The position numbers were made by a program, and so were the translations under genes. Source: Planctomycetota bacterium (GTDB lineage: Bacteria; Planctomycetota; UBA8742; JACQVU01; JANLHZ01). From it: DNA of 64,000 nucleotides. The notes beneath the pieces are model-generated. The model was given only the letters and a program-made list of their open reading frames with translations. It ran no database searches and was not told the DNA's origin. The DNA lies in the NCBI GenBank assembly GCA_024653775.1, contig JANLHZ010000037.1, forward strand, positions 1-64,000, read 5' to 3'. This document shows, in pieces, positions 7,118-48,588 of the stretch (the stretch's first letter is position 1; every line of letters begins with the position of its first letter).

Positions 7118-7129
7118 AGGTGGGTTTCG

Positions 7130-33400: not shown

Positions 33401-34174
33401 AACTTCCTCCCACACAAGCGTTATCGCTCCGCTGTCGCTTGCTACGATGGACAGCATCGGCGCGGCTGGCGGATCTACCGAAACCGTCGGCCTCAGACTG
33501 ACAAGCGGGGAAGGCAGCGACTCTCCGGAACCATTGAACGCAGTCAGAATGAAGTAATAGTCCACGTCGTTGGTCAGACCTGTCACCACTAGCGGATTGA
33601 CCGCGTCCGGGATGGTAGCCCCGTTCCCCGGAGCGACGTCCGGCTCCATGCTGTAATAGATATTGTATCCGACGGCATTCGAGACGAACTCCCACGCGAG
33701 AAGAACGCTTTCAGTTCCAGCGGACGACGATGAGAACGTCGGAAGCGATGGCGGCAGGACCGACGCCATCGGAGTTGCGATAGCCGTGTTCGATGGAAGA
33801 CTGTCGCCGCCGGCGGATTCAGCGACAACCCTGAACGAATACGAAGCACCATTTGTCAGACCTTGAACGACGAAAACGTTTCTGGTCGTCTTCTGGATTT
33901 TCAGGACTCCGCCTTCAACGGCGTCTCCGTATATCACCCGGTATTGGCTGGCGCCCGCAACTTCGTCCCAGTGGATGGTAACCGTTCCATCTACCGCGGC
34001 GCCCACCTCGACAACCGGCGCGTTAGGCGCGCTGGGCCTGGAAAAGCTTTCCTTGACCGAGCCTCGATTGCATCCGGGAAGCGCCACCACAAAAACAAGC
34101 AGAATCAGGACAAGACGCGCTAGCCCGTTAGCGACGGTCGAAAAGCCTGGATACGTTAATACGCAAAGACGCAT
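27437..34174 (-). CDS. giant (2245 aa) repetitive cell-surface protein: lipoprotein-type signal, three Fn3 domains, then many roughly 70-aa beta-rich repeats
   Basis: N-terminus MRLCVLTYPGFSTVANGLARLVLILLVFVVALPGC. Fn3-like segments (TVTIHWDEV..YRVIYG). Repeats such as TQNTDTGTT..W.I.S.G.SGT.D...LTG.R.YNLPDASGT.ALT and GGTGAS...AR.NLGLG. Confidence 0.75.
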   Translation of the reverse strand: MRLCVLTYPGFSTVANGLARLVLILLVFVVALPGCNRGSVKESFSRPSAPNAPVVEVGAAVDGTVTIHWDEVAGASQYRVIYGDAVEGGVLKIQKTTRNVFVVQGLTNGASYSFRVVAESAGGDSLPSNTAIATPMASVLPPSLPTFSSSSAGTESVLLAWEFVSNAVGYNIYYSMEPDVAPGNGATIPDAVNPLVVTGLTNDVDYYFILTAFNGSGESLPSPLVSLRPTVSVDPPAAPMLSIVASDSGAITLVWEEVFNATSYNLYYRASSSVTPENGTAVVNAVSPEVVTGLVNGVTYVFIVTAINVAGESEVSEVVYGTPIGISDDAVLDVTASGPLSSSGGQTPNITLSGVVDVDYGGTGASSAQDARTNLGLGGLATMNAIDESLWSGAPLSIATGGTGASTASNARINLGLGGLATMNAIDESLWSGAPLSIATGGTGASTASNARINLGAASIGVNADITGLTALSTRDAVVIGPYGVGNGETGELRFLEIASNGNDYIGLKSPDGVSSSLVFTLPGSDGTANQVLSTDGAGRLIWTNPGAGTVTSVTASGVLSSTGGAAPEITLSGIVPMSSGGTGASTSGSARANLGIGSIATQNASSVSITGGAVYGTSTSNFVINSNGNSGTFDAASLGADRLYNLPDASGTIALTTDIHTQNTDTGTTQPTWIVGSSGFSGTLDSAALTGNRTYNLPDASGTIALTTNIHTQNTDTGTTQPTWIVGSSGFSGTLDSAALTGNRTYNLPDSSGTIALTSNLHTQNTDTGTTAASWVINSVGDSGTFDTASLTGARAYTLPDQSGIVVVSGMNSNLTGLTGLQTQNAISVGPYGGAPGNTGEIRFLELSAAGTNFTAFKAPDSMLTDVLYVLPSGDGDPGEILSTDGAGNLAWTTVGAGTILSVTGSGVISSSGGLNPDITLTGVVALANGGTGSANAAGARTNLGLGSMATQNSNAVSITGGSISGTSTSTWVINSGGNSGTFDSVTLTGSRSYNLPDASGTLALTSNLHTQNTDTGTTSATWVIGSGGFGGTLDSTVLTAGRVYNLPDASGTMALTSNLHTQNTDTGTTSASWIIGSAGNSGTFTTATLTDDRSFTLPDASGTFALTNDLTTYLPLSGGVMSGSIGVSANNSVDLGANGSAFRSAYVGTSLVFENGASDTTITASSTSARAILFPDNSGTVSLTSDIAGLLSLSGGTMNGAIAVGADNAYDLGLNGSAFRTMYLGTSLVFEDGASDTTLQFVSPTAPRTITFPDASGTVALTSNIHTQNTDVGTTSSTWVINSSGFTGALDSAALTAGRVYTLPDASGTLALTTSIHTQNTDIGTSQTNWTVNSGGNSGTFDSAALTGNRTYNLPDASGTLALTTNIHVQNTDTGTTSPSWIVGSGGNSATFSTASLTGTRSYTLPDLSGVVVVSGVNTNITGITGLSTQSALSIGPYGVAAGNTGEIRFLELAAGGVNYAGFKAADSMATNVMYTLPDGDGAPGEILSTDGSGNLTWTAGGAGTVTGVTGSGVISSSGGITPDITLTGIVPIANGGTGAANAGDARTNFGLGSMATQNSGAVSITGGAISGTSTATFVINSGGNSGTFDSAILTGSRSYNLPDASGTLALLTNLHTQNTDTGTTAATWAINSGGFTGTLDSAVLTAGRVYNLPDSSGTFALTTDLHAQNTDIGTTSASWIISSAGNTGTLSAATLTGARVFSLPDATGTLVLSGVNDTITGITGLATQNAISVGPYGAAAGNTGELRFLELASNGSEYIGFKAANSIAANLVYTLPSADGIATQVLTTNGLGTLSWSTPAGGGTVLGVTASAPLASSGGTNPDISITGQVAVANGGTGAANAGDARTNLGLGSLATQNSNAVSITGGSISGTSTPMWAINSGGNSATFDTAVLTASRAYTLPDASGTLALTSGLHTQNTDTGTTSTTWILNSTGFTATLDSSFLSANQAFTLPDVTGTFVITAGNQSIAGNKTLTGTTAFAGAFTLGDDGDTGAIDTSDWNIDATGAMTGISGITTDGGYTQIGAIANVFTGTVTVNTANADAALGTTDGTFNYALNSTDGGIIRVGAVAGLPAAGAPAGSLNFNTNAGTDTGLNVSDGIKWQPMGARVLATYRSTAAEDVGSNWITIDASLNAIAASQPGLYIVDITVSESNQNSDYDIGFRLRETVGGTTLDSFSPGHYRQQESGGVACTLYYNKTNTDAETLSVQWVIIGGTNGGPTAFTLDGEVMSVTRVTVYRVNTN
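31930..32235. repeat. near-identical 153-bp tandem duplication inside the giant gene
   Basis: Two units, over 95% identical, in frame. Confidence 0.8.
32811..33100. repeat. 120-bp tandem repeat x2.4 inside the giant gene
   Basis: aggtttatcctcgcgttcgatgcggtcgacgcgcccgtgcc... repeated at 32811, 32931 and 33051. Confidence 0.8.
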
Positions 34175-34509: not shown

Positions 34510-35559
34510 CTATTCGCCTGCGGGAAGCGCGAGCGCGCGCTCCATGTGCTCTGGTCCGGAGAGGTGCGGGTTATGGCACCTCGAGCAGTTGCGCTCGATC
34601 GGCGTGCGGTCGATCTTGCGCTTCCACGCGCCCGGATCGCGGGCGTTCCCGAGGATGACGCGGTTCATCAGCGTGACGTGTTCCGAAGCCGCGCCGTGGC
34701 ACTCGCTGCACCAGATTCCGCGCTGATGGGGAGTCTGCTCGGCGTTCTGGAAGCCGCCCCGGTCTGGCGAGTCGAATCCGGTGGTGTGGCACCGCAGACA
34801 CTTTGGATCGTGGGTGTAGTCGGCCTTCCCTCCAGTAGCGGCGGACGCGGTAACGAGTCTATCGAACGACGTAGCGTGTCTCGAAGCGCCCCAGTCGTTC
34901 ACGCGGTCCTCGTGGCACTTCTTGCATTCGTCCATGGGGACGAACCTCGCCTCCGAAGAAGCCCGCTGCGCGTCCCGCGGAATCGAAGCGTCCGTCCCCG
35001 CGGCCCAGCCGCGGTAGTGGAACTGATCCTGCGGATCGATCCAGGCGAGAGTCTCTTCCGGGGTCTTCAGATGCGGATTATGACAATCGAAGCACGCGCG
35101 GGTCGGATGCTTTTCTATCTGGCGGTTGTGTTCTCCCGGATCGATCGCTCCCTGAACGCGCCTTTGCACCGGAAGCATCAGATCGATGTGAGCGGAACCC
35201 CGGCCGTGGCATTCGCAGCAGCCGACGTCGACGAGGCTTGGAGTCTCTTCGAGACTGCGGAAACCTCCTGTCTGTTTGTATCCTGTCGAGTGACATGCGA
35301 GGCACGCGGGATCGAGTTCCTTGCCCTGGTTCTCGAAATGGCTCGTGAGAGTCTCGTACGCCTGGGCGTGGTCCGACGCGCGCCATGTGCGGTACTCGTC
35401 CACATGGCAGCGTGTACAGAAGTTGCTCGGGACGAACCTCGCGCTTCGAGGAATGTCGCCGTCGCCGGTGGCGCGCCTCGCTTCGAGAGTGATAAACACG
35501 AGGCACATCGTAAGCAGAGCGACAGGAAAGCCCAGGGACACGGTTCTGATCACTTTCAT
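34510..35559 (-). CDS. octaheme c-type cytochrome (8 CxxCH), secreted
   Basis: Signal peptide MKVIRTVSLGFPVALLTMCLVFITLEA. Heme motifs CTRCH, CLACH, CCECH, CFDCH, CKKCH, CLRCH, CSECH and CSRCH. GGGAGAG ribosome-binding site. Confidence 0.85.
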   Translation of the reverse strand: MKVIRTVSLGFPVALLTMCLVFITLEARRATGDGDIPRSARFVPSNFCTRCHVDEYRTWRASDHAQAYETLTSHFENQGKELDPACLACHSTGYKQTGGFRSLEETPSLVDVGCCECHGRGSAHIDLMLPVQRRVQGAIDPGEHNRQIEKHPTRACFDCHNPHLKTPEETLAWIDPQDQFHYRGWAAGTDASIPRDAQRASSEARFVPMDECKKCHEDRVNDWGASRHATSFDRLVTASAATGGKADYTHDPKCLRCHTTGFDSPDRGGFQNAEQTPHQRGIWCSECHGAASEHVTLMNRVILGNARDPGAWKRKIDRTPIERNCSRCHNPHLSGPEHMERALALPAGE

Positions 35560-35597
35560 TTTACTCTCCCAGCATTGCGATTGGCGTTAGCTCCCTG

Positions 35598-36860
35598 TCA
35601 ATCCTCCTGATGGCACATCGACAGGCAATCCACGTCAGCTTCTTTTTCCTCGTGACACTCTATACATTCCTTCCGATCCCTCTGCTCGAAGGTAGTGGGC
35701 GGATCGGTTGATGCGACCATCCCCTCGTGGCAGTCGAGGCATTTTATACCGGACTTCACGATGTGGATTCGGTGGCTTGGATACGCGTGCATATAGACCG
35801 AACCGGGTCTGATCCACGGAATCCGGCGTCCGTCGATCAGATACGGTTTCAGGGCGTCCTCGCGATCGCTTTCCTCGTTCAGCCTCGTCTCGGGATCGTG
35901 GCATACATCGCAGAGCTTTACGCCCGGAACTCCCGCTTCCTTGTATACGAGCGTATCCGAGTGGCAGCTTACGCAGGGGCGCAGCTCCGGATTCTGGACG
36001 ATGTAAGGCGCGTCCGCGAGTTCGTGACAGTTTGCGCAGCCCTCGATCTTCGGATTGATCTTGAGCGCGACGTCCCAGGAGCCGTGGCAATCCTGGCAGC
36101 CCTTCTCCTCGAGTCCCTGCCTTACGAACGCCGGCCTCTGCTGCGCGTTCGGCATCGTCTGTCTTCCCTCGTGGCAGGAGCCGCACATGGCCCTCCGCGA
36201 TATGACGGACTCGGGAAGCGAAGCCTCGTTATGATGACAGTCGTCGCAATTGGCATTGAGAGCCGACGAGATAGCCTCCCGCGGGGTTTTCGCGAGAGCG
36301 GGTTTCGACGGATCCTCCGAATACGTGTTCATGGGACCGTGGCATTTGCCGCAGTAGTCGAGCCTCGGAGTTCCCATCAGCTCGGTGCTGAACTCGACGT
36401 GGCACTCGAGACATGTTTTCGAAGTGACGTTGCTCTCGCTCTCTCCGAAGCCCTTGTGCATCTGGATATAGCGCTCCTGGTGGGCGCTTTCGAACCCGGT
36501 CGCGTGGACGTGCAGTCCGACCGCGGTTTCCTTGTGACGGTTCTCTTCGAACACTTTCAGGTGTCTTTCGATCCCGGCTTCGCGGTGTTCGCCGCCGCCG
36601 AAGTGCTCGAGGTAGTCCTTTCCGCCGAAGTAGGTGTAGTGGGACTGGTGGTTGAACTGAATCGGCTGCAACGGAAGCTGCTCGATCTTGTGACCGTTCG
36701 GTCCGACACGGACGCCGTCTCCGCCTTCTTCCCCGTTGCCCGAGGTTTCGGTGCAGTTCTGGAGGCAAAGCGCTGTAAGAATCAGGACGCTCGCGAAAAC
36801 GATCGCTTCCCGTTTGAATGATTTTAGCTTTTCCATAGACGAAGTCCCTTTGATTTCCAC
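35598..36860 (-). CDS. multiheme c-type cytochrome (about 10-11 heme motifs), secreted
   Basis: Signal peptide, 10 CxxCH (CLECH, CGKCH, CDDCH, CGSCH, CQDCH, CANCH, CVSCH, CDVCH, CLDCH, CIECH) plus one CxxxCH. Confidence 0.85.
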   Translation of the reverse strand: MEIKGTSSMEKLKSFKREAIVFASVLILTALCLQNCTETSGNGEEGGDGVRVGPNGHKIEQLPLQPIQFNHQSHYTYFGGKDYLEHFGGGEHREAGIERHLKVFEENRHKETAVGLHVHATGFESAHQERYIQMHKGFGESESNVTSKTCLECHVEFSTELMGTPRLDYCGKCHGPMNTYSEDPSKPALAKTPREAISSALNANCDDCHHNEASLPESVISRRAMCGSCHEGRQTMPNAQQRPAFVRQGLEEKGCQDCHGSWDVALKINPKIEGCANCHELADAPYIVQNPELRPCVSCHSDTLVYKEAGVPGVKLCDVCHDPETRLNEESDREDALKPYLIDGRRIPWIRPGSVYMHAYPSHRIHIVKSGIKCLDCHEGMVASTDPPTTFEQRDRKECIECHEEKEADVDCLSMCHQED

Positions 36861-36935
36861 TCGGCGATATATGTCTTCCTGGAACCCCTCACTTTTTGTT
36901 TCGCGGGTCGCGAAGAGAATTCCCCGGACCCGTGC

Positions 36936-36961
36936 TCCTCTCCCCGTTTGGGGAGAGGAGG
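36936..36961. other. intercistronic hairpin (ctcctctcccc-gttt-ggggagaggag)
   Basis: 11-bp perfect stem between the giant multiheme gene and the next cytochrome gene, with no T-run. Confidence 0.4.
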
Positions 36962-36976
36962 GAGCTGAATCTATTA

Positions 36977-39900
36977 CTATCTGATGTCCGCACCCGGTGG
37001 GTACGAACCTGTAATCGCTCTATACGATTCCTGCATAAGCTGGATAATATAGCCGAAGTTGTGGGTTCCGTGGGAACCGTCTTCCTCGACCGCGATCCAG
37101 TTCCAGAGCGCCCCGGCGAGGTTGTCCCCGGCCATGTTGATGGTGATTCCGGAGACCGGGGATCCGCTGCTTGTCAGGTAACCTGCTCTTTCGAGCGCAA
37201 GGCCGAGCACTTCGTGCAGTCCCTCGAACTCGTCGCGGTGCCCCTCGACGTGCCCGTCGCCGTCGTAATCGCCCTTCGAGGGTCGATCGATCGTCTCCAG
37301 ATTGACGTGGCAGCCCTGGCAGGCGTTCGCCACGTTGGAAAGCTCCCGACCGTCTTCGTCAGTCGTGGTGATTTTGAACGTGTGTTCGCCCATAATGAGG
37401 CTTCCGGTTTCCACCGTGGAAGGATCGGGCGCCATGTGGCAGGTGATGCACGTGTTTTCGACTTTGGAGTGAGCGCCTACGTGCTCCCAGGCTTTGGTGT
37501 TTACGCTGTTCACCATCAGGTGGGAGAAGTTCTCGTAGCCGTTGGTGCCAAAGAGCATATCGCCCGATATGCCGTAGTGCGGTCCCCAGTGGCTCGAAGT
37601 GGCATCACCCCGAGTCTGCCAGGTTCCGCGAGCCTGGTGGCATCCAAGGCAGAGGTTGCCGTGACCTCCATCCTCTGAAACGACTCCCGTCGCGAAGGTG
37701 ATTGGTTCCTGCCTTCTGATCTGATGCTCGTTGGTGGCATCGTGCGGATCGTGGCAGGTCACGCAGCCTATCTCGAGTCCGGATGTCTGAGGCATGATCT
37801 CCAGCGTCACGTCGGAATCGTTGGTCTTATACGTCACGGTGACGCTTCCGTAGGTCCAGCCCGAGCTGTTCTGCTCGGTGAGGTCGAGGGATGTCGCCGT
37901 AGTGGTGTAGGCGTAGGAGCCGCTTGCCACCACGTCTCCCGACGCGAAGCTGGAACCCTTCGCGATAGTGACGTCCACGTTGCCAGTGCCCGTGTTGTAG
38001 GCGAGCTTGGCGTATAGACGTCCGCGTCCGAGGTAGGTGTTCGTGAAGTTCATACCGTTGAACGTCCAGGCATTGAACTGGTTCGATCCGTCGTTCTCCT
38101 CGACGAGAAGCACGGTCTGTTTCAGGATCGACACGGTTATGCTGGTTCCGGTCGTAGTCGGAATGGCTGCCGCGACGTTCAGAGTCATGAAGTTCGCGGA
38201 AGTCCCATAAGTGCTGCTCGCGGTAGTTTCGACCGCGGGAGTGACGAGCGTGAGCGTACTGCTTACCGCTGGAGTCGCGATCGTTCCCGTGGTGGCGAGA
38301 AGCTGGTACGCCCGCTTTTGCGAGTTGTTGTATGCGTCCATCTGGAAGTTACCGGCGCCGTCGTCGGTGTATGTGATATACACACTGGTGGGCGCGGACT
38401 TGCTGGAGTTCTTGAACAGATAGACCCAGGTGTCGAACGTGTTCGTGGTTTCGCCATCGGTGATTGAAACGATTCTTGTGGAATCGTCGTTGCCCTCGGT
38501 CTGTCCGTTGATGAGGATGAAACCCTGTGCGCTGTGGCACTTGGTGCATCCGTCGTTTCCACCTCTGCTTTCGATCGCGGTGCTGTGCTTGTGGCCCGCC
38601 TGCTGGAGCATGAACGCCCTTGGATGCGCGTTCGGCTCGTCGTGGCAGACTCCGCACTGATCGTCGTCGAAACTGACGGAAGTGTTGAACGTGGCGGTCT
38701 GCGCGACGCTGCCGGTCCCGTCGGTGTGCTCCGAACCTGGACCGTGACAGTTCTCGCACTGGATGTTCGCGCGCTGGGACAAAGCGTTGTGAGGTCCGGC
38801 GTCGTCGATCAGCGCGTCCCACTGGGCCTCTGATCCACCTGTGGTGAAGGTCCACCCGGACTGCTCCTTCAGGTCGGTCCAGCCGCCGTTGTCGATTGCC
38901 GGGTCCGCCTGCCAGCCGACGGTATGGCACTTGAGGCAGGATTCGCTATACTTACTCGAAAGAGTGCCGTTAATGCCTCGTTCGGCGTGCTCCGCATGCC
39001 CGGTTTCCTGCCAATCCGCGACCCTCGAGTCGTGACACCCGGAGGTGCCACAGCTCTTTCCGGAAGGAGTGTCGCCTCCGATGGTTCCAACGGTGACGTA
39101 GGTTCCCGCGGTTAAGTTGTATGTTCCCGACTCCTTGAGCGTCGTCATCGTTACGTTGCTAAAGCCGTTATAACTGATGGTGTACACTCCGGGCACGTCA
39201 GGCGTGAAGTAGCACCAGCGCTGGGCGCCTGTCGCGTCCCAGCTAAGCGTTGCGACGCTCCCGGCGGGTTGCGCGGAAAGCGAGTACGTCCAGGCGACGA
39301 GCGCGGTTCCCGTCTGCGATTCGAGAGCTCCCATGAAGTACATCGGAACTCCGATGGACACGCAGCTCTGAGCGGACTGCAGGAAGCTGTATTCCGACGT
39401 GCCTACGGTGTAGCTCTCGATCCACGAAGTTACGCTGTCGGTGGCGCGGTTGTACCACACGGTGTCGTTTCCTGCGGTATAACTGACGGTGCTGTCGTCG
39501 GTGACGTGAAGGTCGAGAGTCATTTTGCGCTCGACGGGCGTGAACCCCATTGGCGCCCACCGATCGGGCATGAACTCGTTTCCATTGCTCGCGAGGTCGT
39601 TAGTTACCGTCGGGAACGGATTCGTGAAGGTCGGATTAGCCGTGTCCCCACCTGTGAGCGACACAATGTGGCCGTGTCTGTCCTCGAAGGACCAGTCGTA
39701 AGACGCGGTTCCGGTTACGTTCGCGGGAGTAGCGACGATTGTCGTGATCTGCGAACCCCATCCCTGATTTTTCAGATCGGGGCCTGCGCTTACGCTGAGG
39801 CTGCTAGCGGTCGGCGCGGCGAACGCGCTCGTCGCGACGACTTCGACCGTCGTAGTCTTGCGAACTCCGGCTCCACCGGCGTCGCCGACCGTCAGTTCGA

Positions 39901-41662
39901 TCACGTAAGTTCCGGCCTTGGTCGGGAAGAACCAGGGCTTGCTTGCGTCCTTTCCAATAATCTGACTCGCGCTCGTGTCGGGACCGCTGACGATCCTCCA
40001 GTTGTAACCGAGGCTGTCGATGGCTTCTCCGTCCGTGCCATATCCGTTACCGTCGAAGCTCTTGGAGCCGTCGAGCTGGATCGCGCCGAGGACGTCAGGC
40101 GCGGCGGCGCGCGCCGCGGGAACCGGGCTGAGGTTGCCCCACATTGTGAGTAGCTTGGTGTTAAGTTCCGCGATGGCATCGTCCGAGTGGCACCCGCCCG
40201 ACTGACACGAGTTCGGCATTCCCTTGACTCCGCCGTGGGAGTCGTCGCTTTCGGTCGGATATATGATGCGGAACTCGTGGTTCCTGATGTCGTACGCCTC
40301 CGCGGACTTCGCCATGTATGGCATGTGACAGTCGATGCAACCCGTCGGGGTATCGTCTCTAATTGGGTGTTTAGTGTGCTTCGTTATGTCGCTTGCCGTG
40401 AGGTTGTACGTTCCCTCGTGGCAGGAGAGGCACAGTTCCGTCGGCTCCATCTTGATGTCCGCTGTGAACGTGGACCCGTGGGGAGCGTGACAGGAATAGC
40501 ACGTAAGTCCCGCTTCGACGTGTTTCGATTCATCCATGTCGATCCACTGCTGCTGGTGACCTTTGGATGAGAACGTCGCATTCTGCCAGATGTTCGCGGT
40601 ATTGCTGTTCGGAATAAACTCGCGATAATCCTCGAGCACGTCCCCCGGCTTATAGAAATCGCCTTCCGCGTTACGGGAATACTCGGCGTGAAAATCGTTC
40701 ACGACGCCGTCGGCGGAGGTCATCGGGTATTTGCCTTCGCCTCTTCCGTGGCAGGTGGAGCAGACCTCGTTGCCTCTGTCCTCTGCCATGAGCGCGGGAT
40801 TGTTTATAGTGCCTCTGCCTCCTCCAAGAGAAACGTGTTTGGAACCTGGGCCGTGGCAGGCTTCGCAGCCGATGTTGGCTTCGGTGTAGTTCGCGACGAT
40901 GTGGTTTTTCCGTCCGTCGGAGCCGACGTTTATCTCGTCGATGTACGCCTCGGTGACGCCTGTGGCGTGACAACCAACGCAGTAAGCCTCCCAGGACTTA
41001 TTGAGCGGAGGCAGATCCGTTGTGGTATATCCGCCTCCCTCCACGGCGGTGTAATATCTGTTCGCGTTGTAAGTGGTCCACCGATTCGTGTTCACGTTGT
41101 ACTGAAGCGGAAGGACGTAGTTGACCACGTTGTTTCCGACAGTGACGGGGGTCGTATAACGCTGTTTCCACCTGCCGCTGCCTCCGATGATGCTTTCTAC
41201 GGTCCATACCTTGGTTCCCATCGTGACGGTGTATCTTCCCGTCGTTTGGTTGTACCCGAGAATGGGAGCGATTTCCCCGTAGGCGCTCCAGTCGGAATCG
41301 TTGTATGCGTCGGTCGCGCTCGATCCGAGCTGGATTCCCTGCTTGAAGTCGTTCACGCCGTCGTCATCGCTGTCGCAGAGGATGTTTTCGTCCTCCATCG
41401 AAAGGAATTTCTTGGTGTGATTGGTCGACTTCCAGCTCTGGTAGAGAGCGGCGTGACAGTCGGCGCATTTTTCAGAGCCGACGTAAGCCGCGTTAAGCTG
41501 CGAATGAACCGCGGTTGCGCGGGACGAATTCGCCAGAATCCGGTCGTCGTTCGTACACTGCGTAATCGAGACTCCGAGCGCGACAGCGCATAGAAGTATG
41601 AATAGCCATCTCCCCATTAAAGCGATCGTCTCCGATCCAGTCTTTTCCGATAAACCTTTCAT
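36977..41662 (-). CDS. giant multiheme c-type cytochrome (about 1560 aa, about 15-17 heme motifs) with a large heme-poor central beta-domain region
   Basis: Start at MKGLSEK, with GGAGG 5 nt upstream. Signal peptide LMGRWLFILLCAVALGVSITQC. Heme motifs CADCH, CVGCH, CEACH, CSTCH, CYSCH, CLSCH, CIDCH, CLKCH, CENCH, CGVCH, CTKCH, CVTCH, CLGCH, CITCH and CQGCH, plus two CX4CH. Confidence 0.85.
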   Translation of the reverse strand: MKGLSEKTGSETIALMGRWLFILLCAVALGVSITQCTNDDRILANSSRATAVHSQLNAAYVGSEKCADCHAALYQSWKSTNHTKKFLSMEDENILCDSDDDGVNDFKQGIQLGSSATDAYNDSDWSAYGEIAPILGYNQTTGRYTVTMGTKVWTVESIIGGSGRWKQRYTTPVTVGNNVVNYVLPLQYNVNTNRWTTYNANRYYTAVEGGGYTTTDLPPLNKSWEAYCVGCHATGVTEAYIDEINVGSDGRKNHIVANYTEANIGCEACHGPGSKHVSLGGGRGTINNPALMAEDRGNEVCSTCHGRGEGKYPMTSADGVVNDFHAEYSRNAEGDFYKPGDVLEDYREFIPNSNTANIWQNATFSSKGHQQQWIDMDESKHVEAGLTCYSCHAPHGSTFTADIKMEPTELCLSCHEGTYNLTASDITKHTKHPIRDDTPTGCIDCHMPYMAKSAEAYDIRNHEFRIIYPTESDDSHGGVKGMPNSCQSGGCHSDDAIAELNTKLLTMWGNLSPVPAARAAAPDVLGAIQLDGSKSFDGNGYGTDGEAIDSLGYNWRIVSGPDTSASQIIGKDASKPWFFPTKAGTYVIELTVGDAGGAGVRKTTTVEVVATSAFAAPTASSLSVSAGPDLKNQGWGSQITTIVATPANVTGTASYDWSFEDRHGHIVSLTGGDTANPTFTNPFPTVTNDLASNGNEFMPDRWAPMGFTPVERKMTLDLHVTDDSTVSYTAGNDTVWYNRATDSVTSWIESYTVGTSEYSFLQSAQSCVSIGVPMYFMGALESQTGTALVAWTYSLSAQPAGSVATLSWDATGAQRWCYFTPDVPGVYTISYNGFSNVTMTTLKESGTYNLTAGTYVTVGTIGGDTPSGKSCGTSGCHDSRVADWQETGHAEHAERGINGTLSSKYSESCLKCHTVGWQADPAIDNGGWTDLKEQSGWTFTTGGSEAQWDALIDDAGPHNALSQRANIQCENCHGPGSEHTDGTGSVAQTATFNTSVSFDDDQCGVCHDEPNAHPRAFMLQQAGHKHSTAIESRGGNDGCTKCHSAQGFILINGQTEGNDDSTRIVSITDGETTNTFDTWVYLFKNSSKSAPTSVYITYTDDGAGNFQMDAYNNSQKRAYQLLATTGTIATPAVSSTLTLVTPAVETTASSTYGTSANFMTLNVAAAIPTTTGTSITVSILKQTVLLVEENDGSNQFNAWTFNGMNFTNTYLGRGRLYAKLAYNTGTGNVDVTIAKGSSFASGDVVASGSYAYTTTATSLDLTEQNSSGWTYGSVTVTYKTNDSDVTLEIMPQTSGLEIGCVTCHDPHDATNEHQIRRQEPITFATGVVSEDGGHGNLCLGCHQARGTWQTRGDATSSHWGPHYGISGDMLFGTNGYENFSHLMVNSVNTKAWEHVGAHSKVENTCITCHMAPDPSTVETGSLIMGEHTFKITTTDEDGRELSNVANACQGCHVNLETIDRPSKGDYDGDGHVEGHRDEFEGLHEVLGLALERAGYLTSSGSPVSGITINMAGDNLAGALWNWIAVEEDGSHGTHNFGYIIQLMQESYRAITGSYPPGADIR

Positions 41663-41739
41663 ATGTTCCTCCGTTTCTGGCTTATGAATCTCTATCTGGT
41701 TTCTATTTTTCATAATCGGCTTTCCGTTGGTTTCCATAT

Positions 41740-42924
41740 TTACCTCGATCTCGAATGGCAGTTTAGACAATCGGACCCGTTATCGTAGTGTTCGAATCTT
41801 ACACTCACTCCGTGGCAGCTTCGGCAGTCGTTGCCGGGGGAGTGCTGCGTGTTCAGCGGTCTCGCGGGTGCGCTAGTGTGTCCCGCCTCGGTCCTGTGGC
41901 AGGCGAAGCACTCCGTCGAATCTATCGATTCCTCGTGGCAACTCACACAGTGGCGACTCCTTCCCGAAGCCCAGCTCGATGAGTTGTGCGACCTCGGCTC
42001 CGTGAACTGATGGCACCTGAGGCATTCGTCCTGCCTGTGGCAGTTCTCGCAGCGACTCGTGTCGAACATCGCGTCGCGCCCGTGGACCTCTCTCCGCCAG
42101 ACGCTCGTGTGGTCCCGCGGGGCTTCATTCCTGTGGCAATCCCGACATTCGCGCTCCCCCCTGTGGCAGGTGTCGCAGCTCTGGAAGGACGTCGTTCCCG
42201 TCCCGCCGTGGGTGTTCGTCCAGTTTGCGCTGTGGTTCGCGGGCTTGGTCGACTGATGGCATTCCTCGCAGGTGACGACGCCCGGAGTTTCGGGTTCGTC
42301 CCCTGAGTGGCAGAATCTGCACGTTGCCTCCTCTTCCGCAGAAGACGGTCCGTGATTATTCGGGAATTCGCCTCCGTGGTAAGCGGGCTTCTTCTCGCTA
42401 TGGCAGTCGGTACACCACTTGGTATCTTCCTCTTCGTGGCAGAGGTTGCATCTGTGCTCTTCGAAGTGCTCCTCATCCCTAAACCAGCTATGAACGCCCT
42501 TCTCGGTCCAGTTCTCGTCGTGATTCTTCGGCTTCGACTCATCCGTTATCACGCTATGGCAGAGCGTGCATTCGTCCTTCAGGTTCTCGTGTTCCGGCGC
42601 GTTCTTCTCGTGGCAACCTTCGCAGGATTCCATCGTCATCATGTATCCCGGATACTTGGCGTTCTCGACCTTGAGGTCCGGGTCGTGGCACTCGTTGCAC
42701 TTGACCTCGAGACCTTTGTGCAGATCGTGATCGAACTTTATGTCGGAAGTTTCGACGACGCTCGCATTTTCGAACGCGAGCGAAAGCAGATCCTCTTCCC
42801 CGATCCCGAGGAACGAAATGCCGAGACAGGACGCGAAACTCGCGGCTATGAACGCGATCTGAATCAGCCTCGTCCTTCCGAACCATCGCGGATGCTGCCC
42901 GACTTTGTTTTCGACGTGTTCCAT
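41740..42924 (-). CDS. multiheme c-type cytochrome (about 15 CxxCH), secreted
   Basis: Signal peptide. 15 CxxCH motifs in 394 aa. AGGAAG ribosome-binding site. Confidence 0.85.
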   Translation of the reverse strand: MEHVENKVGQHPRWFGRTRLIQIAFIAASFASCLGISFLGIGEEDLLSLAFENASVVETSDIKFDHDLHKGLEVKCNECHDPDLKVENAKYPGYMMTMESCEGCHEKNAPEHENLKDECTLCHSVITDESKPKNHDENWTEKGVHSWFRDEEHFEEHRCNLCHEEEDTKWCTDCHSEKKPAYHGGEFPNNHGPSSAEEEATCRFCHSGDEPETPGVVTCEECHQSTKPANHSANWTNTHGGTGTTSFQSCDTCHRGERECRDCHRNEAPRDHTSVWRREVHGRDAMFDTSRCENCHRQDECLRCHQFTEPRSHNSSSWASGRSRHCVSCHEESIDSTECFACHRTEAGHTSAPARPLNTQHSPGNDCRSCHGVSVRFEHYDNGSDCLNCHSRSR

Positions 42925-42933
42925 GCTGGCTTC

Positions 42934-44598
42934 CTAAAATTCGTACTGAACCTGCAGCCTGACTTCGTGATACGAACCGTTGCCTCCGGTTTCATACGTA
43001 TATCTCGCTTCGAGATCGAATCCCTCGAATGAGCCGAAGAGATCGTGAATCTCGATATTCGAATATATCGACCAGTGATCCTCGCGCTCTGATTCGAGGA
43101 AAGTGACGGAGCTGATCGACGTCTGGACTTCCGTCCACATCGAATAGTCCGCGCCGATGTAGCCCTCGATGTAGTCCTCCTCGTAGCCGACTTCGCCCTC
43201 GACGATTCCGCGTTCCTGGTTGAGCGGATTCGAGGAGGTTTGCGATCCCGTGGTCTTGCCTCGCCAGTACTCGCCCCGGATGAGTACGTGCGAGCCGGGG
43301 GCCACGAGATCGTCCACGTTGAGAAGACCATAATATTTCCACCATTCGCGATTGAACGCGGATTCGGCGCCGTCGTCGTGGAGTTGCCTCGTCGAGGTTC
43401 CGACCTCGAAGAACAGCACTTCCGTAGCGTACCAGCCGACGTTCGCGCTGACCATCGTGTTCGGTTCGAGCTTCGCAAGGACCTCGCTGAAAGGCGCGAA
43501 CGCGCTGTCCGCGCCTTCCTGCGCGGTAAGGAGAGTAGTCACGCGCAGACTGTAATCGAGGTCGATCGCGTTCACCTCCCCGCTGATTCTCGCGCGGATG
43601 TACTCGGAGTTCTCGCCGCGATAGCTGTAGCCGCCGAAAACGCGCAGCTCGTCGAAAATCTTGTACAGATATTCCGCGCTGAAGCGATTGTCCGTGTCGT
43701 CTATCTTAGTCCCTCCGGCAAAAGGCTGCGGGTCGCCCTCACGGACGTGAACGAAACTCGTAAGTCCCTTCCCGAAGTTCCCCGTCTTGAAACGCACGTC
43801 TCCGCCGATCATGTAGTCGCCACTGCGATCCGAATCGAAGAACCTCACGGGGACGCCGCCGAACGCTTCGAATTCGAGCGCGCGCATCAGCCGGATGCCG
43901 AGAAGTCCTCCGTCGAAGGTGTACTGCCTGTCGAGCGAATGCGCGACTCGACCCGCTTCGAGATAGAAGCCGTCCTTGGGACCCTGCTGAAGTCCGATGC
44001 TCGCCTCGTAAAGTCGTCCCTGGAGGTCGCCATTATACGAGTCGAACACGCCTCGAAACTCGTTCGACGTCGACACCGAGCGATCCTGATTCCCGAAGAG
44101 GTCCGCGTACGCGTCCGCCGCGAAATCGAAATACAAATGTCCGTCAAGCAGGTCCCGTCCTCCGAGACCCAGTGAGAATACCATGTCCTGGTCCGTCTCC
44201 CTCGACCTCGTGCGGGATCTCCAGCGGAGTCGAAGATCGCCGAAGATTTCCGGAGTCAGGAAAACGTCGGGAGCAACCTCTTCTTCCGTATCGAGAGCTT
44301 CATCCGTCTCTTCCACCGAATCCCCGGCGGATTCCTCGGTGCCGTCCGGCTCCGCACTCTCATCCGGCTGAGCCTCTTCCTCGGCTTCGGAAATTTGATC
44401 CTCCTCCTCTGGGACCTCCCCGGCGTCCACCATATCTGCCGATTCATTCGTCGCGGAATCCTCTGCAGGTTCTTCCGCGTCGACACTCCGGGGACAAAGG
44501 AGGAGGATCAGGACTAGTCCCGTCGCAACCGCCAGAATGAACCTCGTGCGGATTCCGCCCGGTCCACTCCTTTCAAAGTTTTCATTTTTAACATCCAT
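42934..44598 (-). CDS. putative outer-membrane beta-barrel (porin-like) protein with a roughly 70-aa poly-acidic N-terminal region
   Basis: Start at MDVKNENFERSGPGGIRTRFILAVATGLVLILLLCPRSVDA, a signal peptide. C-terminus ...RLQVQYEF with an OMP-type terminal Phe. Alternating amphipathic strands. The extension to 45240 in the ORF track was rejected. Confidence 0.6.
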   Translation of the reverse strand: MDVKNENFERSGPGGIRTRFILAVATGLVLILLLCPRSVDAEEPAEDSATNESADMVDAGEVPEEEDQISEAEEEAQPDESAEPDGTEESAGDSVEETDEALDTEEEVAPDVFLTPEIFGDLRLRWRSRTRSRETDQDMVFSLGLGGRDLLDGHLYFDFAADAYADLFGNQDRSVSTSNEFRGVFDSYNGDLQGRLYEASIGLQQGPKDGFYLEAGRVAHSLDRQYTFDGGLLGIRLMRALEFEAFGGVPVRFFDSDRSGDYMIGGDVRFKTGNFGKGLTSFVHVREGDPQPFAGGTKIDDTDNRFSAEYLYKIFDELRVFGGYSYRGENSEYIRARISGEVNAIDLDYSLRVTTLLTAQEGADSAFAPFSEVLAKLEPNTMVSANVGWYATEVLFFEVGTSTRQLHDDGAESAFNREWWKYYGLLNVDDLVAPGSHVLIRGEYWRGKTTGSQTSSNPLNQERGIVEGEVGYEEDYIEGYIGADYSMWTEVQTSISSVTFLESEREDHWSIYSNIEIHDLFGSFEGFDLEARYTYETGGNGSYHEVRLQVQYEF

Positions 44599-44633
44599 AC
44601 AGCACGCTGCCCTTGCTGTTAACGAACCTGCTC

Positions 44634-45797
44634 CTAAATGCTCCCAGGTCTCACCTCCGGATCCGTCAGGAGCCATTTTCGAAGGATTGCGAGAAGCACC
44701 ACCGGAGCAAGTACCACCATAACTCCGGCGACGAGTCCTTCCCGTCCTCCAATTTCGAGATTCCATTCCTGCACTCCGAGGTAGGTCTTCGAAAGCAGTT
44801 GACCGCCGATTACGACGTTCCAGCGCATGCTGAAGACCTGAAGAATCAGAAGGAATGAGCTGAAGTAAGCGAGCATCGATCTTGTGCGCTCGCTGACGTT
44901 CACGAATAGAATGTATGAGAGAAGAAGCAGCGGTATCACGCCGCCAACGACCACCTGCGCGCCCCAGTAGCTCATCGCGAGGTTGCCCTCGAGCATCTCC
45001 CGGATAATCGACCAGTAGTCGGTCTCGTAATACGCGAGGTGAAGAAGTTCGAGTAGTTCGAGCGTGATCGCGAACAGCAGGAACCCCCAGAGATACCGCA
45101 CGAGACCCCGGACGCAGTCGCTCGAAACCGCGGTCTTGGTCAGCTTCGCGTGGACGTGATAGAGGATTATCGTGAACGCGAGCCCGCACACCATCGCGCT
45201 CAGGATGAACACGACAGGAGTCAGCGCGCTCGACCACCACATGTTCGTCTTCACCGCCGCGAAGACGAATCCCACGTAACCAGTCAGAATGCAGGCAAAC
45301 GGAATTCCGATCACCGCGAGAGCCTTGATCACCTTCTGATCGTGCTCGTAGCTTGCCTTCGAAATCTTCGTCACGCCCAGGCAGATCAGTTTGTAGAAAA
45401 CGCCCTTCAGCCCTCCGCTAGACGCTTTCGCGACGAAGTTCGGACGGAACGCGTACCAGATCATGACGATCACAAGCACGAGGAATCCCATGTATATGTA
45501 CCCGAAGCCGGACATCGCGCTCGTAAGATGAGGCGTTATGAAAATGTACGCCGCGCGGGTGGGCTGCTCGAGGTGAAGCATAAGCGGTAGCGTCGCGAAG
45601 CAAAGGAACGAAACCGACGCCACAAGCGCGGGTTTGAATATCGGCTCGAGGTACGCGATCCCGAACGCCTTCGAAAGCGCACCGGTTATGAACGTCCCCG
45701 CGACCATGCCCGATATGAAAGGATACAGCACGATCATCAACGACCAGACGACCGTCTCGTTCGGATAGAAGTAGTATGTCTGCAGGATCGTCTCCAT
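44634..45797 (-). CDS. NrfD/PsrC-family polytopic membrane subunit (quinone-interacting)
   Basis: 387 aa with about 10 TM helices and a typical NrfD-like topology. Confidence 0.8.
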   Translation of the reverse strand: METILQTYYFYPNETVVWSLMIVLYPFISGMVAGTFITGALSKAFGIAYLEPIFKPALVASVSFLCFATLPLMLHLEQPTRAAYIFITPHLTSAMSGFGYIYMGFLVLVIVMIWYAFRPNFVAKASSGGLKGVFYKLICLGVTKISKASYEHDQKVIKALAVIGIPFACILTGYVGFVFAAVKTNMWWSSALTPVVFILSAMVCGLAFTIILYHVHAKLTKTAVSSDCVRGLVRYLWGFLLFAITLELLELLHLAYYETDYWSIIREMLEGNLAMSYWGAQVVVGGVIPLLLLSYILFVNVSERTRSMLAYFSSFLLILQVFSMRWNVVIGGQLLSKTYLGVQEWNLEIGGREGLVAGVMVVLAPVVLLAILRKWLLTDPEVRPGSI

Positions 45798-45801
45798 AAT
45801 C

Positions 45802-46521
45802 CTACCTCACCTTCTCTTCAAGCCCGAGATACGCGAGTTTCGGCTCCGTGCCGATGGACTGTCGCAGACCTCTCGTATTGCCTTCGTTCTTTTCGCTCGC
45901 TATCAGCGGATCGCTTCCGTCGATCGAAAATCTTCTCGCTTCCGTCGGACACACCTCCACGCACGCGGGAACCATACCCTTCGAAATGCGGTGGTAGCAC
46001 CAGTCGCACTTGTCCGCGGCGCCCGTCTCGTGGTTGTAGAACCTCGCGCCGTACGGACAGCTCTGGATGCAGTATCCGCAGCCTATGCAGTGCTCGGAGT
46101 CGATGTGTATCAGCCCCTCCGGACCCATGTACGTCGCGCCCACGGGGCAGACCTGCAAACACGGAGTGTTGTCGCACTGGTTGCAGAGCTTCGGAATGAA
46201 GACTGCCTTCTTGATGTCCTTCGGGTCTACGTCCGGCTCCCCAAATCCGTCCAGCCCGCCGTTAGGAGACTCGACGATAAACGTCTGATCCTTCTTGAAC
46301 GTGTACCGCTCGATCCAGGTGCGGAAGTTGTGCTCGGGAACGTCGTTCTCGAGAATGCACGCCTTAACGCAGTGGATGCAGCCGATGCACTTCGATGGAT
46401 CGACCATGAACTCGTAAGTGTGTTCCTCGCCTGCTCCCGCGAGGGCGTAGCTTGCAAGTCCGCACGACATCGCGGCTGCGCTGGTAGTCACTATGAAGGA
46501 TCTTCTCGATAGTTCCGTCAT
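45802..46521 (-). CDS. 4x[4Fe-4S] ferredoxin-type iron-sulfur subunit (NrfC/PsrB-like) with a Tat signal
   Basis: RRSFI twin-arginine motif. Four Cys clusters (CIGCIHCVKAC, CNQCDNTPCLQVCP, CIGCGYCIQSCP, CDWC...CVEVCP). Confidence 0.9.
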   Translation of the reverse strand: MTELSRRSFIVTTSAAAMSCGLASYALAGAGEEHTYEFMVDPSKCIGCIHCVKACILENDVPEHNFRTWIERYTFKKDQTFIVESPNGGLDGFGEPDVDPKDIKKAVFIPKLCNQCDNTPCLQVCPVGATYMGPEGLIHIDSEHCIGCGYCIQSCPYGARFYNHETGAADKCDWCYHRISKGMVPACVEVCPTEARRFSIDGSDPLIASEKNEGNTRGLRQSIGTEPKLAYLGLEEKVR

Positions 46522-47174
46522 TGTCCACCTTCTTTTCTATCCGCGGCGTTTTCATCGATCAGCATCAGATTGTGCTTCGAGTGGCAATCTATGCAACCCT
46601 CGCCGGACTCGTACGCGTACTCCCGCTGATGCGCGGCCATATCGACCTGCGGGACCACGTTCGCGGGCCGGCCAGTGAGTTTCTGGTGACACTCGAGACA
46701 CGTTCCGTTCTGCATGGTCGTCGCGTCCTCGGCGTGGACGTCTCCGTAAGTGCGGGAGTGTCCCATCGCGCCGTGACAGCTTATGCAGGAAATCTTGAAA
46801 TGAAGTCCGAGCGCGAGATCGTCGATTTCATATTTATGGCAGCTTCCGTTTCCGCATGACTCCGAAGTCATATGCCTCGGCTCGCGATCGCTGGATTCGA
46901 CCAGCGCGTCCGCGCGGTAGAAGCCGTCCTGCCCGAAGGACTTCGGAACGAGGAAACCCTTCACCGCGAAAGCGAGGACGATAAGGACGACTATTATAAG
47001 CACGAGACGCTTCGTGTGCGAGGACGCGATACTCGCGTCCCTGTCGTAGAAGTCCTTGCCTTCCAGCGAAACGAACTTCGGAGGTCCGCCTTCACCGACT
47101 GGACGGAAGAAATAATACGTGACAATCGAACTCGCGATTGTCAGACCCATCAAGATTGCCCATGCGGCATCCAT
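46518..47174 (-). CDS. membrane-anchored multiheme cytochrome c (3 CxxCH plus 1 CX4CH, two TM helices)
   Basis: TM helices AILMGLTIASSIVTYYFF and LVLIIVVLIVLAFAV. Heme motifs CISCH, CLECH and CIDCH. 4-nt overlap with the FeS gene. Confidence 0.8.
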   Translation of the reverse strand: MDAAWAILMGLTIASSIVTYYFFRPVGEGGPPKFVSLEGKDFYDRDASIASSHTKRLVLIIVVLIVLAFAVKGFLVPKSFGQDGFYRADALVESSDREPRHMTSESCGNGSCHKYEIDDLALGLHFKISCISCHGAMGHSRTYGDVHAEDATTMQNGTCLECHQKLTGRPANVVPQVDMAAHQREYAYESGEGCIDCHSKHNLMLIDENAADRKEGGQ

Positions 47175-47640
47175 TTTTCACCGCCTATTCTGTGCGGACC
47201 ATCCGGGGAACGGATTCCGGAATTGAACAAGTCAGCGCCGGGTCCGAGCCTGATCGATGATCCGCCTTTTTCATTCGGCGAATGTCGAAGGAAGAAATTG
47301 TTTGTGTACGAAGTATTTCTTCGACACTAAAAACTCACACCACCTTAAACCAAACTGTTTTCCACCGGTCTGCCCCTGGGCTACCGCGACCGTATTGTTG
47401 TTAGAACAGGGATCGTCGGCGCTCTGGGTACAAGCTACCTGCATAAATATCTATCCTCTTAAAGCAAGGCATGGGATCAAAAAAATTATTTTTTTTTGAA
47501 ATAACTCACTTGCACCTTTGAATCAGAACACCTTGAACAGAAAAAGTGGAAACCGTGGACGTCATAAATTGAGTTCGAGCTTGTATCCCGCTCCGGCCGC
47601 GAGAATATTCAAAGAGTAATCACTAAACAGGGGGATTTCA

Positions 47641-48588
47641 ATGGTCAGAAACGTCATCATTATCGGTTCGGGACCTGCGGGCTATACCGCGGCTATTTAC
47701 GCTTCCAGAGCCAATTTACAGCCTTTGCTGTTCGCGGGCGAGCCTCCGGCCCATCTCGACGGAGGACAACTGATGTTAACCACGGACGTGGAGAACTATC
47801 CAGGCTTTCCCGAAGGAATCACCGGCCCGGAAATGATGGACAAGTTTCTCGCACAATCGAAGCGCTTCGGCACCGAAGTCCAGATGCGCAGCGTTACGAA
47901 GGTAGACCTCGAATCCCGACCTTTCAGGGTTTTCCTAGGCGAGGAGGTCCATGAAAGCAAAACCATTATTATCGCTACAGGCGCCGAGGCGAAGTGGCTG
48001 AACCTTCCGGGCGAGAAAGAACTCCACAACCGCGGAATAAGCGCCTGTGCCACCTGCGACGGCGCCCTTTTCGGCGGAAAAGTCGTAGGCGTGGTCGGCG
48101 GCGGCGATTCCGCGGTCGAAGAAGCGACCTTCCTTACGCGGTTCGCGTCGAAAGTCCATATGATCCACAGAAGGGACCAGCTTCGCGCATCGAAGATAAT
48201 GCAGGACCGCGCGCTTTCGAACCCGAAAATCGCGATGGAATGGAATACGATTCCCGAGGGATACTCGGCAAAGGAAGGTAAGCACGGACCCTCTCTCGCT
48301 GGTGTCAAGGTCAGGGACACGAATACAGGTGAAACACGCGAAATCCCCATGGACGGCTTCTTTATGGCGATCGGACACAAGCCGAATACCGACCTTTTCA
48401 CCGGAGTTCTCGATATGGACGAGGTCGGCTATCTAAAGACGAAGCCCGGCACGACATACACGAACATCGAAGGCGTCTTCGCCTGCGGTGACGTGCAGGA
48501 CCGTCACTATCGACAGGCAGTGACCGCCGCTGGGACCGGCTGTATGGCTGCGATCGACGCGGAGCGCTGGATCGAGACCCAGCACTGA
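47641..48588 (+). CDS. trxB: thioredoxin-disulfide reductase
   Basis: GSGPAGYTAA FAD motif, redox-active CATCDG and GGGDSA NADPH motif. Confidence 0.95.
   Translation: MVRNVIIIGSGPAGYTAAIYASRANLQPLLFAGEPPAHLDGGQLMLTTDVENYPGFPEGITGPEMMDKFLAQSKRFGTEVQMRSVTKVDLESRPFRVFLGEEVHESKTIIIATGAEAKWLNLPGEKELHNRGISACATCDGALFGGKVVGVVGGGDSAVEEATFLTRFASKVHMIHRRDQLRASKIMQDRALSNPKIAMEWNTIPEGYSAKEGKHGPSLAGVKVRDTNTGETREIPMDGFFMAIGHKPNTDLFTGVLDMDEVGYLKTKPGTTYTNIEGVFACGDVQDRHYRQAVTAAGTGCMAAIDAERWIETQH

Follow-up and report, generated by a model that had tools for sequence, protein, structure and literature searches.

The window analysed here is a stretch of 64,000 nucleotides (nt) from a metagenome-assembled genome (MAG) that carries the NCBI label 'Planctomycetes bacterium'. 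On its minus strand, at 34510-47174, lie eight consecutive co-oriented open reading frames (ORFs), g1-g8, which probably encode a self-contained route by which electrons leave the quinone pool of the inner membrane for the cell surface, serving outward extracellular reduction. In the proposed path, menaquinol would be oxidised at the NrfD-type subunit g3, and electrons would reach the membrane-anchored tetrahaem cytochrome g1 by way of g2 and its four [4Fe-4S] clusters. The c554-like octahaem cytochrome g8, and perhaps the 11-haem cytochrome g7, would act as onward periplasmic carriers. The 15-haem cytochrome g5 would occupy the ~22-24-strand barrel g4 or lie beneath it, much as MtrA is housed in MtrB, and would pass electrons to the 17-haem, PKD-bearing surface cytochrome g6. 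The final acceptor would be insoluble or of high molecular weight, such as Fe/Mn oxide, humic matter, an electrode or a partner cell. An earlier note on this DNA had described a porin-cytochrome conduit joined to an NrfD/iron-sulphur (FeS)/cytochrome quinol module. This reading is supported by the predicted barrel, the conserved pairing of barrel and cytochrome genes, the absence of a catalytic subunit from the operon and an OcwA/OmhA-like module in g6. All eight ORFs were found at the coordinates first noted, and the haem motif count given for each gene was exact on recount. They are as follows, with lengths in amino acids (aa).

46518-47174, minus strand: g1, membrane-anchored tetrahaem cytochrome c, 218 aa; three CxxCH and one Cx4CH motif, weak c3, c7 and NapC/NirT Pfam matches
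45802-46521, minus strand: g2, four-cluster [4Fe-4S] protein exported by twin-arginine translocation (Tat), NrfC/TtrB/DsrO-like, 239 aa; Fer4_11 match (1.5e-24)
44634-45797, minus strand: g3, NrfD-family integral membrane subunit with the presumed quinol/quinone site, 387 aa; PF03916 match (5.3e-29)
42934-44598, minus strand: g4, predicted outer-membrane beta-barrel, 554 aa; signal peptide, 70-aa acidic linker and ~22-24-strand barrel, C-terminus ...VQYEF
41740-42924, minus strand: g5, 15-haem cytochrome, 394 aa, about one haem per 24 residues; 15 CxxCH, presumed barrel-inserted or periplasmic wire
36977-41662, minus strand: g6, 17-haem-motif cytochrome, 1561 aa; 15 CxxCH and two Cx4CH, PKD/Ig-like non-haem domains
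35598-36836, minus strand: g7, 11-haem cytochrome, 412 aa; 10 CxxCH and one Cx3CH, signal peptide, possible atypical lipobox
34510-35559, minus strand: g8, octahaem cytochrome of two c554-like tetrahaem modules, 349 aa; eight CxxCH, presumed periplasmic shuttle

The three upstream genes encode the putative quinol-oxidising module. In g1, a single strong transmembrane segment spans aa 58-76, the N-terminal hydrophobic stretch being weaker, and the homologues of g1 are single-anchored; the two transmembrane segments first ascribed to it are corrected here to one. These homologues are cytochromes of ~150-190 aa that precede FeS-NrfD gene pairs in L001, L035, L036, L075, L080 and L090 (L-numbers denote related loci from genomes and metagenomic contigs compared in our analysis), and they share 27-36% identity with g1 by BLASTP and 28-34% in MAFFT alignments. 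The first haem motif of g1, CGNGSCH (CX4CH; residues 107-113, window 46836-46856), aligns with a CXXCH motif in all six, and is best described from this alignment as a two-residue insertion in a standard motif. g2, which overlaps g1 by 4 nt, contains a twin-arginine motif (SRRSFI) and 17 Cys residues, with four Cys clusters. Its best NCBIfam matches are TtrB, NrfC and DsrO, each under the equivalog cut-off. g3 has 8-10 hydrophobic segments. The Fer4_11 and PF03916 matches, together with the Tat signal, agree with the Tat-targeted four-cluster ferredoxin and the NrfD-like subunit described at the outset. g2 and g3 score far under the cut-offs of the named equivalogs TtrB, NrfC, NrfD, DsrO, DsrP, QrcC and QrcD. 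Relatives of g3 are numerous (1,779 at E<=1e-10, from many phyla), the best at 49% identity, and those at ~45% include Anaeromyxobacter and 'Deltaproteobacteria' proteins. PDB sequence searches with g1 and g3 gave nothing useful. The combination of an anchored tetrahaem cytochrome, a Tat-exported four-cluster FeS protein and NrfD is conserved as a three-gene module in the same six loci.

The g4 gene starts at ATG 44598; a longer ORF from 45240 would overlap g3. The product has the signal-like N-terminal segment and the ...YEF ending claimed for it. It matches no Pfam or NCBIfam family. A HMMER search of 1.84 billion cluster representatives returned only g4 itself beyond E 1e-30, plus 169 distant relatives of 440-620 aa at ~25% identity, none above ~30%. 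A word-indexed protein search found only g4 itself, or nine proteins when the family alignment was used, and low-complexity words had probably filled its candidates. Using an alignment of 38 sequences (g4 and 37 relatives), AlphaFold2 produced a model with a predicted local distance difference test (pLDDT) score of 82.6 and a predicted template-modelling score of 0.81, whereas the single-sequence prediction reached only pLDDT 29.8. The model is nearly all antiparallel strand, with 23-24 elements as read by DSSP. g4 thus models as a large outer-membrane beta-barrel of ~22-24 strands with a cytochrome-sized lumen, and not as a globular protein, the outcome on which the earlier note had made its reading depend. 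A PDB sequence search with the g4 family profile gave no match. Membership of the MtrB/PioB family was rejected: PF11854 does not match g4 and touches only one of the 38 family members, at 3.8e-4.

Between the signal peptide and the first strand of g4 lies the acidic linker (aa 41-110, window 44269-44478), 70 aa with 44% Asp and Glu and neither Lys nor Arg. The Asp/Glu-rich region of about 70 aa noted earlier is therefore present, but a role in mineral binding is unlikely because the N-termini of outer-membrane proteins ordinarily face the periplasm, as the g4 linker probably does. A linker of at least 20 aa occurs at the same position in 37 of 157 family members and is mostly rich in Pro, Ser, Ala, Gly and Thr; only that of g4 reaches at least 30% Asp and Glu. 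Judged by this comparison, the acidic stretch appears to be a lineage-specific version of a variable linker. A conserved mineral-binding domain was rejected, given that the acidic composition is unique to g4 and its location probably periplasmic.

The four cytochromes encoded after the barrel match, together with g1, the c7, c3, c554, paired-CXXCH and MtrC-domain families. The cluster holds ~55 haem motifs over ~2,900 residues in total, against a chance expectation of ~0.01-0.02 estimated from residue frequencies. Sequence inspection found one signal-like N-terminal hydrophobic segment, with basic residues ahead of it, in each of g4-g8, in line with the secretion claimed for the cytochromes. 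g5 starts 9 nt past the g4 gene and is presumed, by analogy, to be the counterpart of OmaB or MtrA; its PDB sequence matches are ACIII ActA and c7/PpcA.

g6, the cytochrome put at about 1560 aa in the earlier note, is preceded by a GGAGG Shine-Dalgarno sequence ahead of ATG 41662. It contains MtrC/MtrF domain II/IV (2.6e-17) and a K319L-like PKD domain, and residues ~222-441 match the structures of OcwA (6i5b, 4.7e-12) and OmhA (6qvm, 1.9e-11). This likeness suggests that g6 shares a haem-core module of cell-surface metal reductases, and g6 is presumed to be the surface-exposed terminal oxidoreductase. Over residues 33-597, g6 shares 33% identity with the giant cytochrome of L003/L004 (E 1e-90). 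Residues 702-1049 and 1300-1490 match a separate 851-aa cytochrome of L003, and g6 therefore looks like a fusion of two cytochrome modules. The start of g7 is ambiguous (ATG 36836 or GTG 36860), and its C-terminal part resembles ACIII ActA/QrcA-type cytochromes. g8 matches PF13435 (1e-33) in two stretches and the c554 structure 1bvb (6.7e-9). Its halves are similar to single-module c554-like cytochromes (~31-34% in L003/L004, 26-31% in L034 and 22-27% in L049/L052), and g8 would on this basis be a tandem duplicate of the small c554-like cytochrome of related Planctomycetota loci.

Comparison with related loci places g4 and g5 in a conserved outer-membrane core. In the Planctomycetota loci L003, L004/L005, L033 and L034, the barrel gene is followed by a 13-15-haem cytochrome (344-386 aa) and then by one or two large cytochromes (700-1165 aa); the barrel and cytochrome genes overlap or are 0-9 nt apart. 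Shared with the window are the barrel (23-26% identity), the 13-15-haem cytochrome directly 3' of it (30-32% to g5, E 1e-34 to 1e-48; full-length for L003, L004 and L033, partial for L034), modules of the large surface cytochrome and the c554-like small cytochrome. Four of the five related large cytochromes have a canonical lipobox at the called start (LGGC, LVGC, VSAC or LVSC), and the fifth (L033) has an atypical ASAC. A further 25 loci, in which the barrel gene immediately precedes a cytochrome gene, come from Nitrospirae, a Desulfovibrio MAG, many Mucispirillum, Myxococcota and a Coxiellaceae MAG. These were found by scanning species-representative genomes with g5-alignment peptide patterns and then applying the barrel-family hidden Markov model. 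The scan used two patterns only, recovered neither the source genome nor any Planctomycetota, and is not a census. Altogether, more than 25 loci, spread over at least six phyla, have a member of the barrel family directly 5' of a haem-dense cytochrome. Such tight pairing across phyla, of the kind known from MtrA/MtrB and OmaB/OmbB, argues for a physical barrel-cytochrome complex.

Unlike the barrel-cytochrome core, the inner-membrane partners of the related Planctomycetota clusters differ from those in the window. In place of the NrfD/FeS/tetrahaem module, L003-L005 encode a CbcL-like fusion of a multihaem cytochrome and a cytochrome b, L033 a NapC/NirT-type cytochrome and L034 a cytochrome b with multihaem partners. 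The window differs further in that its large cytochrome modules are fused into 1561 aa and its c554 module is duplicated in tandem. The picture from these comparisons is one of a conserved outer-membrane core with apparently interchangeable inner-membrane quinol modules. By analogy with ImcH, CbcL and CbcBA in Geobacter, the quinol module chosen might adjust the range of redox potentials over which an acceptor is used. We tentatively propose, as an idea with slightly less than even chances, that these loci represent a distinct unnamed conduit clade in Planctomycetota and other uncultured lineages. Its plug-and-play core would consist of the barrel, a 13-15-haem wire and giant PKD-bearing surface cytochromes, coupled in cis to swappable quinol modules, and the window would be its most complete single-operon version.

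Two kinds of neighbouring gene cluster were observed beside members of the barrel family. Next to their porin-cytochrome cores, L003 (1675-6806, minus strand) and L034 (8483-12920, plus strand) encode a cytochrome b, a ~405-aa multihaem cytochrome and a 660-680-aa NapC/NirT-type multihaem cytochrome, to which L003 adds a Rieske protein; these clusters resemble the unusual multihaem-containing bc-type complexes of anammox bacteria. In Mucispirillum (L009 3213-10462; also L008 and L011-L026), the barrel and a ~175-aa pentahaem cytochrome directly follow three genes, for a Tat-signal molybdopterin oxidoreductase (1191-1279 aa), a DmsB-like FeS protein and a NarJ/DmsD-type chaperone. There are several paralogous copies per genome, two of them in L015. 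The logic of these clusters is that of Shewanella DmsEFAB, an outer-membrane-linked molybdoenzyme, here in gut Deferribacterota.

The NrfD module is also joined to the barrel elsewhere. A scan of metagenomes with the NrfD alignment, which used narrow peptide patterns and is not a census, found 80 loci, 38 of them with at least 3 kb of downstream sequence. A barrel of the same family lies on the same strand in two of the 38 (L049 and L039); in a third locus (L052) the contig ends inside the barrel gene.

L049, 7928-14835: cytochrome, FeS protein, NrfD, c554-like tetrahaem cytochrome, barrel, 14-haem cytochrome
L039, 9983-19260: NrfD, 9-haem cytochrome, 24-haem cytochrome, barrel, 13-haem cytochrome
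L052, 250-3539: FeS protein, NrfD, c554-like cytochrome, barrel

The NrfD-plus-porin-cytochrome design therefore recurs outside the lineage of the window, in at least three metagenomic contigs, and the locus is not unique. In a study of subsea-tunnel MAGs, an NrfD-type cluster adjoins a porin-cytochrome complex in one Planctomycetota MAG (PMC10732223). The novelty of the gene combination had been overstated in the earlier note: its core is shared with L003-L005, L033 and L034, NrfD occurs with the barrel in L039, L049 and L052, and there are published precedents. Work on divergent porin-multihaem clusters from uncultured phyla is active and already extensive (e.g. bioRxiv 10.64898/2026.05.27.727921).

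Among known systems, the porin-cytochrome (Pcc) family, which includes OmbB-OmaB-OmcB and Ext, offers a close parallel in organisation: a barrel gene adjoins a periplasmic multihaem cytochrome gene, accompanied by outer-surface multihaem cytochromes. Published Pcc barrels have 18-22 strands and their periplasmic cytochromes 5-14 haems, with members in six phyla, including Ca. Kuenenia (a planctomycete) and Ignavibacterium, whose 'periplasmic' cytochromes have 14 haems and ~400 aa (PMC4245776). Like these barrels, g4 (~22-24 strands) is smaller than MtrB, and the spread of the Pcc family overlaps the phyla of the g4 family (Deferribacterota, Myxococcota and Planctomycetota) or of the g5-like cytochrome (Ignavibacteria, L032). 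The window differs in that g5 has 15 haems, one beyond the published maximum, in that its surface cytochrome, with 17 haems and PKD domains, reaches the great length of 1561 aa, and in that a quinol dehydrogenase is encoded in the cluster, whereas those of Geobacter are encoded elsewhere. Indirect links to Geobacter are sub-threshold NCBIfam matches to the GSU2203/GSU2204 families.

The inner-membrane module has a parallel of its own. Cbc4 of G. sulfurreducens (CbcS-CbcT-CbcU, GSU0068-0070) comprises an anchored tetrahaem cytochrome, a 4x[4Fe-4S] protein and a membrane subunit and is thought to be a quinol:cytochrome c oxidoreductase (bioRxiv 10.1101/2025.04.14.648717). Its proposed role, to reduce periplasmic cytochromes that feed extracellular electron transfer, is the one suggested here for g1-g3, and g1 would by analogy be the counterpart of CbcS in a Cbc4-like module. 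g1 is longer, however (218 vs 160 aa), its first haem motif is Cx4CH, and Cbc4 is not linked to a porin-cytochrome cluster. In Shewanella, SirCD, which is of the NrfCD type, can take the place of CymA as the electron supply for extracellular respiration (summarised in PMC11434368).

The likeness to Shewanella MtrCAB, for which CymA or SirCD serves as quinol dehydrogenase, is one of plan: an inner-membrane quinol oxidase, a periplasmic or inserted decahaem wire, a barrel sheath and a surface cytochrome, with MtrC/MtrF domain II/IV in g6. In contrast, g4 lacks a PF11854 match and has fewer strands than the 26 of MtrB, and haem numbers and protein sizes differ. Against the DmsE/MtrA family TIGR03508 (cut-off 192 bits), g5 scores 15.8 bits and g6 81 bits. 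Membership of MtrCAB/MtoAB/PioAB was rejected, as there is neither a PF11854 barrel nor a decahaem cytochrome of the DmsE/MtrA family (g5 has 15 haems). The surface terminal reductases OcwA (Thermincola potens) and OmhA (Carboxydothermus ferrireducens) resemble g6 in the haem module; their hosts are Gram-positive and lack an outer membrane, and they have 9-11 haems and no partner barrel. Membership of ACIII/Qrc was likewise rejected: the ActB/QrcB molybdopterin-like subunit and ActD/E/F are not encoded in 34510-47174, the QrcD score is 31 bits against a cut-off of 570, and the only likeness to ACIII is that of the c7-like cytochrome domains of g5 and g7 to ActA.

The window system fits the published description of the Pcc family, which was the basis of the comparison; the membership criterion of Shi et al. 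(2014) is a BLAST E<0.01 to OmbB/OmaB/OmcB (PMC4245776). Cbc4 has the same three-subunit design and gene order as g1-g3, a likeness at the level of architecture. Several observations weigh against a single, dedicated outward route. Surface lipid anchoring of g6 and g7 is uncertain because the candidate lipobox Cys that follows the hydrophobic segment stands in atypical contexts (ITQC and LQNC), whereas the giant lipoprotein encoded next door has a canonical LPGC. The first four contexts of a g1-g3-type module that we looked at contained it alone, with no barrel nearby. Most loci of the family are such stand-alone three-gene modules, and the NrfD module is not by nature reserved for extracellular transfer. 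Internal promoters could lie in the gaps ahead of g6 (77 nt) and g7 (140 nt). Finally, sequence does not reveal which way the electrons flow, and the best-known role of c554, in Nitrosomonas, is in inward flow to quinone.

The eight genes might accordingly not be one unit, and a Cbc4-like module (g1-g3), a Pcc core (g4-g6), g7 and g8 might be merely adjacent, with separate expression and pathways. The usual isolation of the NrfD module, the barrel found in only two of the 38 metagenomic loci and the two wider gaps all speak for this explanation, but the layout makes it very unlikely. All eight genes are co-oriented, and with the best-supported starts the gaps from g1 to g8 are -4, 4, 35, 9, 77, 140 and 38 nt; the gaps of 0-116 nt with two overlaps first reported hold only if upstream TTG/GTG starts are taken for g6 and g7. 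The sole strong terminator-like site of the region follows g8, where a rho-independent terminator had been claimed, and the internal gaps between g1 and g8 contain no such site. In addition, g8-type c554 and g6/g7-type cytochromes are also found in related Planctomycetota clusters, and the order NrfD, c554, barrel recurs independently in L049 and L052 (in L049 with a cytochrome after the barrel). Transcription of g1-g8 as one operon would be bounded by the following features.

47641-48588, plus strand: divergent thioredoxin-reductase-like gene (Pyr_redox_2 match)
47175-47640, minus strand: upstream intergenic region of 466 nt, the presumed operon promoter region, common to the divergent gene
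34473-34447, minus strand: intrinsic terminator-like hairpin, with a 10-bp stem (7 G-C pairs) and a loop of 7, then the T-run TTTTTAATTT; 37 nt past the g8 stop

The upstream region contains an AT-rich tract at ~47480-47500; a promoter consensus scan gave nothing above chance. An Rfam search of the window found no RNA family.

The same machinery could also run inward, or reversibly depending on conditions. The donor would then be extracellular Fe(II), a cathode or a syntrophic partner, whose electrons would pass through g6, g5 and g8 to g1, and the FeS/NrfD pair would act as a Qrc-like cytochrome c:quinone reductase. We consider this unlikely, although it has the tandem c554 of g8 in its favour, since in ammonia oxidisers c554 feeds electrons toward a membrane tetrahaem cytochrome and quinone. 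NrfD-type complexes such as Qrc are known to run in the quinone-reducing direction (PMC8076601), and Mtr/Pcc-type conduits serve Fe(II) oxidation in MtoAB/PioAB (PMC4245776). However, menaquinone reduction by Fe(II)-derived electrons is energetically uphill at neutral pH (textbook knowledge). Oxidation-linked Pcc/Mtr clusters usually lack large surface cytochromes (PMC4245776), whereas the window encodes a 17-haem OcwA/OmhA-like protein, and no oxidase, Cyc2 or carbon-fixation genes were found near the operon within the window.

The best family matches of g2 and g3 (TtrB, NrfC and NrfD) raise a further alternative, a periplasmic reductase of the nrf, psr or octahaem type for a soluble substrate. 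For example, the OcwA-like module of g6 could reduce nitrite, hydroxylamine, sulfite or polysulfide with electrons from NrfCD, and the barrel would be an ordinary porin. The match of the g6 N-terminal module to OcwA (6i5b) fits such a role, as OcwA belongs to an NrfA/octahaem-related lineage and reduces nitrite and hydroxylamine in vitro. We regard this explanation as highly improbable. The operon lacks a catalytic partner (no CxxCK haem motif, no molybdopterin domain or subunit and no NrfA/PsrA family match), which excludes an nrf/psr-type reductase, and a ttr-type enzyme was rejected on the same grounds. All equivalog scores are far under their cut-offs, so the check for an already characterised nrf/psr-type enzyme found none. 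g4 belongs to no general porin family, and its relatives are tightly linked to a multihaem cytochrome gene across phyla; ~55 haems would also be excessive for such an enzyme.

If the route from quinol to the cell surface is expressed and functional as proposed, this uncultured planctomycete has, in one transferable unit, a complete gene set with which to respire solid or polymeric extracellular acceptors or to take up electrons. It would extend extracellular electron transfer in Planctomycetota past the two-gene Pcc of anammox bacteria. The system appears to be known machinery for breathing solid minerals in a new arrangement, not a new kind of machinery. Particular to the window are the union of an NrfD-type module with the rest of the path from quinol to surface in a single cluster of eight genes, the 15-haem wire, the fused 17-haem surface cytochrome, the tandem c554 and the uniquely acidic barrel linker. 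By percent identity, its proteins are very distant from anything sampled (at most ~30% for the barrel and 49% for NrfD). The conserved outer-membrane core with four different quinol-oxidising modules leads to a testable proposal that modules are swapped to match the potential of the acceptor, and the compact operon lends itself to rebuilding a complete conduit in a heterologous host. The g4 family has no Pfam or NCBIfam model and is therefore missed by annotation and marker surveys that rely on those libraries.

Downstream of the operon, at 27437-34174 on the minus strand, lies a gene for a 2245-aa lipoprotein rich in Thr, Gly, Ser and Ala. It has the canonical LPGC lipobox mentioned above, three N-terminal FN3 domains, internal tandem repeats of 153 nt and 120 nt, and no haem motifs. 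The operon terminator and a 335-nt spacer set it apart from g8, so that it probably forms a unit of its own; it is at most a putative adhesin. Further away, at 4413-8713 on the minus strand, two D-Ala-D-Ala-ligase-type ATP-grasp genes, one of which includes a fused GNAT acetyltransferase domain, adjoin a lysine-2,3-aminomutase-like radical SAM gene; together they may form a small peptide or compatible-solute (beta-lysine-type) pathway.

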